This document shows, piece by piece, positions 5,108-5,837 of a stretch of 64,000 nt of DNA. The DNA is taken from the NCBI GenBank assembly GCA_946407055.1, contig CAMJMP010000002.1, forward strand, positions 7,400 through 71,399. Reading direction: 5' to 3'. Position numbers and translations under genes: made by a program. A model generated the notes under the pieces. It was not told the DNA's origin, made no database searches, and saw only the letters and a program-made list of their open reading frames with translations. The stretch's first letter is position 1. Each line of letters opens with the position of its first letter. Origin of the DNA: an uncultured Mycoplasmatota bacterium. Lineage in GTDB: Bacteria > Bacillota_I > Bacilli_A > RF39 > UBA660.

Positions 5108-5837
5108 TACCCTTACCAAGAATCGAACTTGGATCAATAGTTTAGCCTGCCACTCTATGTTACCATAGCCAAATAACTCTTGGATTCTAACCAAGAAACC
5201 GCCATTACCTCAAGCATCACAACCATGCTTTCGACTTTGCATTACTGCTTTCAGATAGTTTACATATAGGTTGCTCTACTATCATCAGTTATTTGTTGTG
5301 GTCTGGAACATATTATAACCATATTGAAATTCTCGCGCAAGTAGTGTCTGTTTCAGTGATAGCAGTTCATGTAAGCCTGCTTATTTGACCGTCCCACAAT
5401 TTCAACTTAGGCTGTACCTCTATGTTCTCTACACGTTTATGAGAATAAACAATATTTACGAATTGCCACCAATAAATATTGTACAATGGAAATCAAGGAG
5501 TCTACAAGGAGGCAATTGCTTCTGCTTGTACTTTCTTTTCATTCTATTCTCAACTTAGCTCGGTATAATCCTATTCCATTATTGTTTAGGAAAATCTTCT
5601 AACAGCACTCCTATGGAATTACCCAATGGTCTGTCGCCTTTATCATTTCAAAAGAGGGTTGAACATTTAGTCTTTCTCTTTTATAGATAGTAAGACTCAA
5701 GGTTACTGGTTTAAGATTCATACTTCTAACCTTTTTTCTGAAGGACTTCCACCGAATTAGGATACTTCTACTATGGGATTTCTCGCCATAGCACTCCTTA
5801 TTTGAAGACTACTGCTCTATCCATTGAGCTATAAGGG
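5108..5837 (-). tRNA. split tRNA-Arg (anticodon UCU): exon 1 5804-5837, exon 2 5108-5145
   Basis: 5' exon GCCCTTA-TA-GCTC-AATGGATA-GAGC-A-GTAGT-CTT. 3' exon CTAA-ACTAT-TGAT-CCAAG-TTCGATT-CTTGG-TAAGGGT-A. The acceptor pairs 7/7 and the anticodon stem 5/5 only across the 658-nt gap. The D loop has the Arg-type GGATA (A20). Confidence 0.75.
5146..5803 (-). mobile_element. candidate group I intron in the anticodon loop (between nt 34 and 35) of tRNA-Arg
   Basis: Follows an exon U and ends in G. J3/4-like GGTCAAAT (plus 5381-5390). P3 TTGTGG (5394-5399) pairs with CCACAA (5295-5300). P7 CAGAC (5301-5305) pairs with GTCG (5232-5235) with a bulged A, as in the Tetrahymena P7. Two GTAA-capped hairpins. 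No ORF. Confidence 0.6.

Follow-up and report, generated by a model that had tools for sequence, protein, structure and literature searches.

We analysed a 64,000-nucleotide (nt) stretch of DNA (contig CAMJMP010000002.1 of assembly GCA_946407055.1, positions 7,400 to 71,399; hereafter the window) that is part of a large phage genome. On its minus strand, at 5108–5838, the window very likely carries a live gene for transfer RNA (tRNA)-Arg(UCU) that is interrupted by a group I intron of the tRNA IC3 kind. The intron occupies window positions 5804..5146 and contains no open reading frame (ORF). The assignment rests on the tRNA exons, homology of the core, the predicted helices, covariation of the internal guide and purifying selection, together with sequence relatives, covariance models and folding; catalysis is assigned by analogy. 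As judged by sequence, among bacterial IC3-type tRNA introns it is closest to the tRNA-Leu(UAA) type.

Both tRNA halves lie on the minus strand. The 5′ half, GCCCTTATAGCTCAATGGATAGAGCAGTAGTCTT (5838..5805), comprises tRNA positions 1–34 with U34 as its last base, and the 3′ half, CTAAACTATTGATCCAAGTTCGATTCTTGGTAAGGGTA (5145..5108), comprises positions 35–73. The original prediction, made from the sequence alone, had the strand and the 3′ half right and set the 5′ half one nucleotide off (5837–5804), with an intron of 658 nt; the intervening sequence is in fact 659 nt long. Once joined, the exons make up 73 nt that ARAGORN calls as tRNA-Arg(tct), with an anticodon loop CUUCUAA, 7/7 pairs in the acceptor stem (including a G1-U72 wobble) and 5/5 pairs in the anticodon stem (including one G-U), pairings that agree with those first proposed. 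The intron site is in the anticodon loop, between tRNA positions 34 and 35. The exon-intron boundary can slide by one C, and only the U34|C35 placement gives both a U at −1 and an intron-final G. An alternative P1 using GAAG (intron 37–40) and a splice site at C35 was rejected, as the L004 relative breaks the pairing and there is no U at −1. In its interrupted form the gene was missed by ARAGORN and went unreported by the Rfam tRNA model. No ORF of at least 40 amino acids was found in the six frames of the 659-nt insert, even with any single stop codon reassigned, and the possibility of a recoded-stop ORF inside the intron was rejected because all six frames are closed whichever stop is reassigned.

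Five distinct versions of the locus were retrieved via the gene for a 76-amino-acid protein just upstream. In four related phage contigs (L003–L006) the exons are identical to those of the window at 287 of 288 positions: the 5′ exon is unchanged in L003, L005 and L006 and has one substitution in L004, and the 3′ exon is identical in all relatives. By comparison, the 100 nt upstream of the split gene are 85–90% identical and the 100 nt downstream about 53%. On this sequence evidence, the tRNA halves are conserved far beyond chance. The inserts of the five versions are 599, 614, 659, 940 and 1029 nt long, and their alignment resolves into five nearly invariant blocks separated by segments that have been inserted, deleted or replaced; three relatives have an 84-nt insertion in J2/3. 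A 20-nt pattern taken from one invariant block and scanned over JGI metagenomes yielded four more intron copies and two chance matches, L019 and L020, which lie in unrelated sequence. L022 has the intron at the same site of another tRNA-Arg(UCU), one whose acceptor and anticodon stems differ; both tRNA halves are intact, and the guide and the terminal G are kept. As a side observation, the more distant relative L012 has an uninterrupted tRNA-Arg(tct) of different sequence (L012:5404-5479) directly downstream of its homologue of the 76-amino-acid gene (70% identical), in the place syntenic to the split gene.

Two of the invariant blocks resembled what we take to be the Q and R elements of the Azoarcus intron. 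The corresponding pattern, CCGAGCYAAG...GTGYAGAGA..TAGA, was scanned over one genome per bacterial species and matched more than 120 loci. At 40 of 121 places ARAGORN, with introns allowed, reported a split tRNA, among them Leu-UAA, Met, Arg-CCU, Arg-UCU and Phe. Of the 121 loci, 114 also have the J3/4-P4 and S motifs, neither of which belongs to the fetch pattern, and of 18 loci run against RF00028, 8 exceed its gathering threshold where the pattern matched. On these three grounds we regard the loci as authentic bacterial tRNA group I introns. RNAalifold applied to 35 of them recovered P3, P4, P5, P6 and P8 with abundant compensatory changes.

We built two covariance models from these introns and ran each over the whole window with filters off. 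The first (R1), run on both strands, was made from 35 authentic introns and extends from P3 to P9.0. Its top match in the window is 5292-5464(-) (18.9 bits, E=1.1e-4), which covers J6/7, P7, the 3′ strand of P3, P8, J8/7, the 3′ strand of P7 and J7/9 and skips a 71-nt P8 tip. R1 did not report L022 or L004, whose P8 insertions are too long for the model. The second (R2), made from 17 authentic introns, consists of the guide, P2, J2/3, P3, J3/4, P4 and J4/5, all of them columns outside the fetch pattern. Its top match, 5745-5800(-), scores 28.6 bits (E=5.7e-7, the next match having E=0.37), spans the full model and starts 4 nt after the proposed 5′ splice site; R2 found every member of the intron family. 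An unconstrained minimum free energy (MFE) fold of the intron recovers 10/10 pairs of P2, 6/6 of P4, 4/4 of P5, 7/7 of P6, 4/5 of P7, 9/12 of P8 and 5/5 of the terminal P9 hairpin, and enforcing the full nested core costs 3.7 kcal/mol.

The copies in L017 and L018 bear directly on the internal guide, since here the intron stands behind the 5′ half of a tRNA-Leu(UAA) (GUCAGACUU|...|AAAAUCUGA). Numbering the intron 1–659 from window 5804 down to 5146, bases 7–11 (window 5794..5798, minus strand) read AG·GAG in the Arg copies and UUU·GAG, opposite CUU|AAA, in the Leu copies. The GAG part pairs with C32-U33-U34, which is common to both tRNAs, with U34 opposite G. In the Arg copies the AG of the guide is opposite C35 U36 (P10); in the Leu copies the UUU is opposite A35 A36 A37, the 3′ exon having AAA and not CU, so both sides of P10 are changed. 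Because the GAG/CUU pairing is kept while the P10 part is altered on both sides, this arrangement is best read as the P1/P10 internal guide of a group I intron. P1 itself has only 3 bp (C32 U33 U34 paired with intron G11 A10 G9, with a U34·G9 wobble at the splice site), and a 3-bp P1 is likewise found in authentic tRNA-Leu introns, which have CUU..UUGAG. Homologues, guide covariation and the custom covariance models bear out the central proposal of the original prediction, an ORF-less group I intron in tRNA-Arg(UCU) at the 34/35 site used in tRNA-Leu(UAA).

The remaining elements can be followed along the intron and compared with the authentic set, and the helices were compared across nine copies of the family. 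In both, the guide runs as GAGUGC into a P2 stem with a GAAA loop; the phage P2 is UGCUAUGG(C)GA-GAAA-UCCCAUAGUA (intron 12–36, window 5769..5793), which is fully paired in the free fold and aligned by R2 to authentic P2. J2/3 is GAA, against (GUA)GAA in authentic introns. By the R2 alignment and the comparison of relatives, the 5′ strand of P3 is GUAUC (intron 40–44, 5761..5765), with a partner at 5418..5414; the helix GUAUC/GGUAC corresponds to authentic CUGCUC/GGGCAG and has the same final U·G and C-G pairs. On the 5′ strand the relatives vary (GUACC, UUGCC or UUACC), and the 3′ strand, GGUAC (intron 387–391, 5414..5418; R1 alignment and relatives), is invariant. The next block, invariant in the family, holds J3/4 CUAAUU, the P4 5′ strand CGGUG, J4/5 GAA and the P5 5′ strand GUCC (intron 45–62, 5743..5760) and fits the authentic consensus AAAUUCGGGGAAACC, with both P4 and P5 completely formed in the MFE fold. 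Here authentic introns have AAAUU in J3/4, UCGGGG/UCCCGA in P4 (phage UCGGUG/UACCGA; some authentic introns have the same U-A variant) and AAA in J4/5. P5, GUCC/GGAU, is extended by a peripheral insertion of about 170 nt (intron 63–233, 5572..5742) that is kept in close relatives and is shorter and different in L022 and L021. Inside this conserved extension, the nine bases AGGAGUGCU that make up the guide and the start of P2 (5798-5790) recur at 5612-5604 (intron 193–201); the second copy may be a chance occurrence, a duplication remnant or an alternative pairing partner. The P5 3′ strand GGAU, J5/4 UA, the P4 3′ strand UACCG and the Q element AGCUAAG follow (intron 234–251, 5554..5571), matching the authentic consensus AUCCCGAGCCAAG, in which Q reads AGCCAAG.

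P6, UGAGAAU/AUUCUCA, has a variable distal extension of about 100 nt (intron 252–365, 5440..5553); all its pairs form in the MFE fold, and the stem is preserved through at least five different sequences across relatives. The R element (intron 366–386, 5419..5439; R1 alignment) comprises J6/7 UAAACGUGUA, the P7 5′ strand G(A)GAAC with its bulged A, and J7/3 AUAGA, and is invariant in the family save for one A/G. J6/7 AAACGUG compares with authentic GAAGGUG, P7 G(A)GAAC/GUUCC with G(A)GAC/GUCC, and J7/3 with UAGAC; in P7, G376, the bulged A377 and G378 A A C381 are opposite G496 U U C C500. P8 (intron 394–486, 5319..5411) is CCUAAG-UUGAAAUU ... AAUUUCAA-UAUGG with a variable 66-nt tip, most of its pairs forming in the fold; its base, CCUAAG...UAUGG, corresponds to CCUAAG...CUAUGG in authentic introns, and its tip is swapped for about 125 nt of other sequence in L003–L005 and L022. 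J8/7 UUAUAAUAU and the P7 3′ strand GUUCC form the S element (intron 487–500, 5305..5318), which is placed by the R1 alignment, the relatives and the MFE fold. After P7 the phage intron has CCAGACCAC, as do 84 of the 121 authentic introns. J7/9 AGA and a P9 domain closed by CCAC/GUGG then take up intron 501–655 (5150..5304), the P9 interior varying from about 70 to about 480 nt among relatives. The terminal P9 hairpin with its GTAA loop (5168..5155), a tetraloop also noted in the original prediction, is real and covaries (CUAUG-GUAA-CAUAG versus CUAUA-GUAA-UAUAG). Both this loop and the GAAA loop of P2 are conserved; in the Azoarcus structure, GNRA tetraloops on P2 and P9 serve tertiary docking. 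The intron ends in CAG followed by the terminal G (omega G, window 5146; tail 5146..5149). Its end, ...GUGGCAGG|, is invariant in all Arg and Leu copies, giving the junction ...GUGGCAGG|CUAAAC; the L022 end reads GUGGUAGG|, and the G at 5146 is invariant in all copies.

Authentic examples have introns of 190–247 nt (ARAGORN), a compact IC3 size that the 659-nt phage intron exceeds about threefold. The excess is in P5 (about 170 nt), P6 (about 100), P8 (66–125) and P9 (about 70–480), none of it coding, and brings the family to three to five times the usual length. These peripheral insertions, and that in J2/3 of some relatives, are probably folding scaffolds or tolerated expansions.

The same comparison decides against a different map of the core, the one originally put forward, in which P3 was TTGTGG/CCACAA, J3/4 was GGTCAAAT, P7 was CAGAC/GTCG and some 400 nt between P2 and P3 were left unexplained. 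The strings are present (GGTCAAAT at 5390..5383, TTGTGG at 5399..5394, CAGACCACAA at 5305..5296, GTCG at 5235..5232 and the AAGCAT...ATGCTT hairpin at 5230..5212), they look like the Tetrahymena-type consensus, and the same P8-tip variant occurs again in L006 and L021. However, TTGTGG, GGTCAAAT and the first CAGAC are in a 66-nt segment that is replaced in L003, L004, L005, L017 and L022, GTCG and the AAGCAT hairpin are absent from relatives, and the conserved blocks are elsewhere and align to authentic introns. As all the listed strings except CAGACCACAA are in segments that relatives lack or replace, they are no evidence of a core; the elements assigned to J3/4, P3 and P7 are located in the variable tips of P8 and P9, and the supposedly unexplained 400 nt hold P3, P4, P5 and P6 with their large insertions. 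At the level of sequence comparison this map is already refuted, and we leave it next to no chance of being correct.

A different kind of element altogether, be it a group II intron, a protein-spliced intron of the archaeal or eukaryal type or a transposable element that disrupts the gene, would fit the large size of the insert and could find some support in the short, unexplained inserts in other tRNAs of the same phage (described below). Yet the 5′ end of the intron is CAAAU rather than GUGYG and its 3′ end is CAGG, the site is 34/35 and not the canonical 37/38, there are no ORFs and there is no second copy in the window by self-blast. Moreover, a search of the window region and of L004 against Rfam, at gathering thresholds and at E≤10, returned no intron family of any class, group II included, and the group I core covers every conserved block. 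We therefore consider such an element highly improbable. A weak match to Dictyostelium Class I RNA upstream of the gene (5845-5906) was judged to be chance. Searches at the nucleotide level were equally silent: blastn of the region against GenBank phages gave no match, and in IMG/VR two core patterns had no match and a junction pattern had one chance match, in a coding region.

Several observations weigh against a functional group I intron or against the means by which it was recognised. In J8/7 the phage intron, with UUAUAAUAU, differs from authentic introns, where GAAGGNAUA is nearly invariant and 93 of the 94 strings listed end in AAGGNAUA or GAGGGAUA, the outlier being L071 with AGAUUGUAUA. 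The additional P7 pair varies among relatives (A-U, G·U or A·C), and P3 is down to 3–4 pairs in L003 and L004. The fold of the whole intron is no stabler than that of shuffled sequence (z=-0.74, 20 shuffles). A sequence-only hidden Markov model of authentic cores (nhmmer) matched only weakly inside the intron (E=3.5 and 8); structure-aware models are needed because the GC-rich profile fits the AT-rich target poorly. R1 is partly circular, its seeds having been fetched by Q and R letters that are shared with the phage intron. Finally, RF00028 gave no match at E≤10 in window 4800-6100 or in the shortest relative, L004, an outcome that the original prediction had named as grounds for refutation. 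The silence of RF00028 is nevertheless a poor criterion, because fewer than half of the tested bacterial loci with the core motifs reach its gathering score and none of its seeds is bacterial (Williams 2020, bioRxiv 10.1101/2020.01.27.920355).

Two members of the family also count on this side. In L017 the 3′ exon leaves the tRNA-Leu match ten bases past the splice site, so that most of it is lost, and this copy is a fragment or recombination product that has no usable split gene; an intact, different tRNA-Leu(UAA) follows directly after the cut-off 3′ exon (minus strand, ~50-1003 of the extract). L021:11060-11860 is an expanded copy without recognisable tRNA exons, whose 5′ flank ends in AUU. 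It resembles a dead intron that was later overwritten; a complete tRNA-Arg(tct) sits just past the 3′ strand of P7, with CCAGA repeated on both sides.

These points could mean that the window's intron is of genuine group I descent and has lost the ability to splice, with a tRNA pseudogene kept by hitch-hiking or recent ancestry and AGA read by a host tRNA-Arg(UCU). The divergent J8/7, the extra or mismatched P7 pair, the dead or fragmentary copies in L017 and L021 and the silence of RF00028 would all be compatible with this, and since copies without a usable host gene exist, conservation alone is no proof of function. On the other hand, at least six contigs show rearranged or diverged periphery and flanks around exons and core blocks that all hardly vary, and the diverged second tRNA-Arg(UCU) of L022 retains both halves, the guide and the terminal G. 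ARAGORN finds 30 tRNAs in the window and, apart from the split gene, no tRNA-Arg(UCU) among them, even though AGA is the commonest codon for Arg, with a share of 55% in the long ORFs of the window. The conservation of exons and core amid a rearranged periphery and diverged flanks, the lack of any other tRNA-Arg(UCU) in the window and the dominance of AGA argue that the gene is used and therefore spliced, and we consider loss of splicing unlikely.

For a splicing intron, analogy with the Anabaena and Azoarcus pre-tRNA introns suggests the following course. The guide AG·GAG (intron 7–11) would line up both exons, through P1 with C32-U33-U34 and through P10 with C35-U36. A free guanosine held in the P7 pocket (G378-C499, beside the bulged A377) would attack after U34; the terminal G659 would then fill the same pocket, and exon ligation would yield the loop CUUCUAA with the junction ...GUAGUCUU-CUAAACUAU... 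Ordinary end-processing would come after ligation.

The simplest history that the sequences suggest is that a Leu-type intron moved to tRNA-Arg(UCU). As both tRNAs share C32-U33-U34, only P10 bases had to change in such a move. A further and unlikely possibility is that tRNA group I introns have a greatly expanded lineage peculiar to phages, able to pass from one tRNA with C32-U33-U34 to another. Passing from Leu-UAA to Arg-UCU would then need just two or three guide bases of P10 rewritten, for example via reverse splicing, and the conserved ORF-less insertions, among them the P5 domain with its second AGGAGUGCU, would add a role, such as timing the supply of a tRNA for the dominant Arg codon during infection.

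The carrier of the split gene is a gut phage related to crAss-like phages. Among the products encoded in the window are a portal protein, a major head protein and the large subunit of a terminase, by sequence a distant relative of crAss-like phage terminases, with 28-41% identity to those of crAss-like phages of Bacteroides. A nearly identical contig of 181 kb (L002) is present in ENA. Among the 30 tRNAs are suppressors with anticodons CTA and TTA, and the longest ORF of the window grows from 794 to 1838 codons once TAG is reassigned; together, the suppressor-type tRNAs and the lengthening of this ORF suggest that TAG is recoded in part of the phage genome. The suppressor-type genes (anticodons TTA and CTA) are at 17414-17484 (-) and 29449-29521 (+). 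The terminase large subunit ORF (35575-37356, plus strand) matches its PHROG profile only from profile position 183 on, at residue 2; an intron, intein or recoded stop may cut off its N-terminal part. A 359-amino-acid neighbour protein had no relatives in IMG/VR and no record by exact sequence.

Group I introns also occur in other RNA genes of this phage lineage. A transfer-messenger RNA (tmRNA) gene, beginning GGGGGUAUUUGGUUUUGAUUGC, lies at window 1-443 (-) and runs past the window start; full copies are at L003:15900-17080 and L002:~15930-17150. Its tag frame is GGA AAU GAU GUA ACA AUC UUC CGU AUC GCU GCU UAA (GNDVTIFRIAA*). A second group I intron, whose core is compact, splits the T-loop (GACGAGGGUU|UAAUAG...UUUUUUG|CGACUCCCUC); R1 scores it at 46 bits (E=3e-13) in L003 and at 23.8 bits on the cut copy at window 1-75, and it contains a 187-amino-acid ORF on the opposite strand. 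An intron-less tmRNA allele, GACGAGGGUUCGACUCCCUCUACCUCCACA, is present in L004, L005 and L006. In a close relative (L011:1-420; compare window 14321-14502), a tRNA-Leu(UAA) upstream of a DUF7788 gene has a compact group I intron at 34/35 (R2, 40.7 bits), with an HNH-type endonuclease ORF that extends as far as the guide and P2; in the window itself, both tandem tRNA-Leu(UAA) genes lack an intron. We counted the tmRNA and tRNA-Leu introns, being in the same phage lineage, in favour of the group I assignment.

Other tRNA genes of the window are unusual in different ways. Genes of 117 and 101 nt at 17573-17689 and 22987-23087 (-) are positive with the Rfam tRNA model and negative with ARAGORN; their inserts, close to the anticodon arm, are about 45 and about 28 nt long and much too small to hold a group I core. 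A similar gene in L012 (5490-5675) has an insert of about 110 nt. The two short-insert genes of the window recall the 'enigmatic' tRNA introns of Lak phages, to which they may be a counterpart. Just upstream of the tmRNA gene, at 455-521 (-), is a tRNA-like sequence of about 67 nt with a good T-arm (GAUGGUUCGAAUCCAUU) and six acceptor pairs (GACGCA/UGCGUC), which neither ARAGORN nor Rfam called.

These results indicate that phage tRNA genes can carry group I introns, and that ARAGORN and Rfam RF00028, both in standard use, overlook the tRNA as well as the intron. Because such genes are missed, current counts of tRNAs in large gut phages, and arguments about their codon supply, are incomplete; the tRNA missed here reads the phage's most used Arg codon. 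The family also offers two natural experiments, one in which a guide has been retargeted from tRNA-Leu to tRNA-Arg and one in which a minimal IC3 core tolerates a 3- to 5-fold ORF-less expansion at P5, P6, P8 and P9. R1 and R2 could be used to find more such introns.

According to a 2014 review, every phage intron known by then interrupted a protein-coding gene, numerous as phage tRNA genes are (PMC3984707), and a limited literature search found no published group I intron in a phage tRNA gene. The mechanism is a known one; what is new is the phage tRNA setting and the very large ORF-less expansions. The group I introns in phage protein genes (T4 td/nrdB/sunY, Twort, the crAss-like Zeta group) are phage-borne too, but they usually carry homing endonuclease ORFs, whereas the intron described here is ORF-less and in a tRNA gene. 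Crass-like genomes of 145–192 kb are intron-rich and recoded, with introns in protein genes (Yutin 2021, PMC7886860), and this phage genome shares both the stop-codon recoding and the richness in introns. Lak megaphages, likewise large gut phages with recoded stops, have 'enigmatic' tRNA introns that are conserved across cohorts and that were tested against Rfam and assigned to no class (Devoto et al. 2018, bioRxiv 10.1101/356790); unlike these, the intron described here has a full group I core.

Among bacteria, where the known types of tRNA intron have been expanded from 4 to 21 (Williams, 10.1101/2020.01.27.920355), the tRNA-Arg introns (the classical 'Arg.5Ug' in tRNA-Arg(CCU), and those in tRNA-Arg(UCU) in L070 from Vibrio agarilyticus, L046 and L123) have the same IC3-type core. 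The three in tRNA-Arg(UCU) are compact (194-237 nt by ARAGORN), unlike the phage intron, and in L070, the only one of them examined closely, the insertion point is after position 36 (CUUCU|AA) and not position 34. The bacterial tRNA-Leu(UAA) introns, such as L085, share with the phage intron the 34/35 site and P1 (GAG facing CUU, including U34·G), the motif GAGUGC before a GAAA-capped P2 and GUAGAA after it, J3/4-P4 AAUUCGGNG, Q CCGAGCYAAG, R GUGUAGAGA...UAGA and CCAGACCAC after P7. They differ from it in host tRNA and P10 guide (UU, against AG for tRNA-Arg(UCU)) and in size, their ~190-250 nt contrasting with the 599-1029 nt of the phage family and its ORF-less insertions in P5, P6, P8 and P9. 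In addition, the phage intron has a P7 that is one pair longer and an AU-rich J8/7, is carried by a phage and escapes RF00028.

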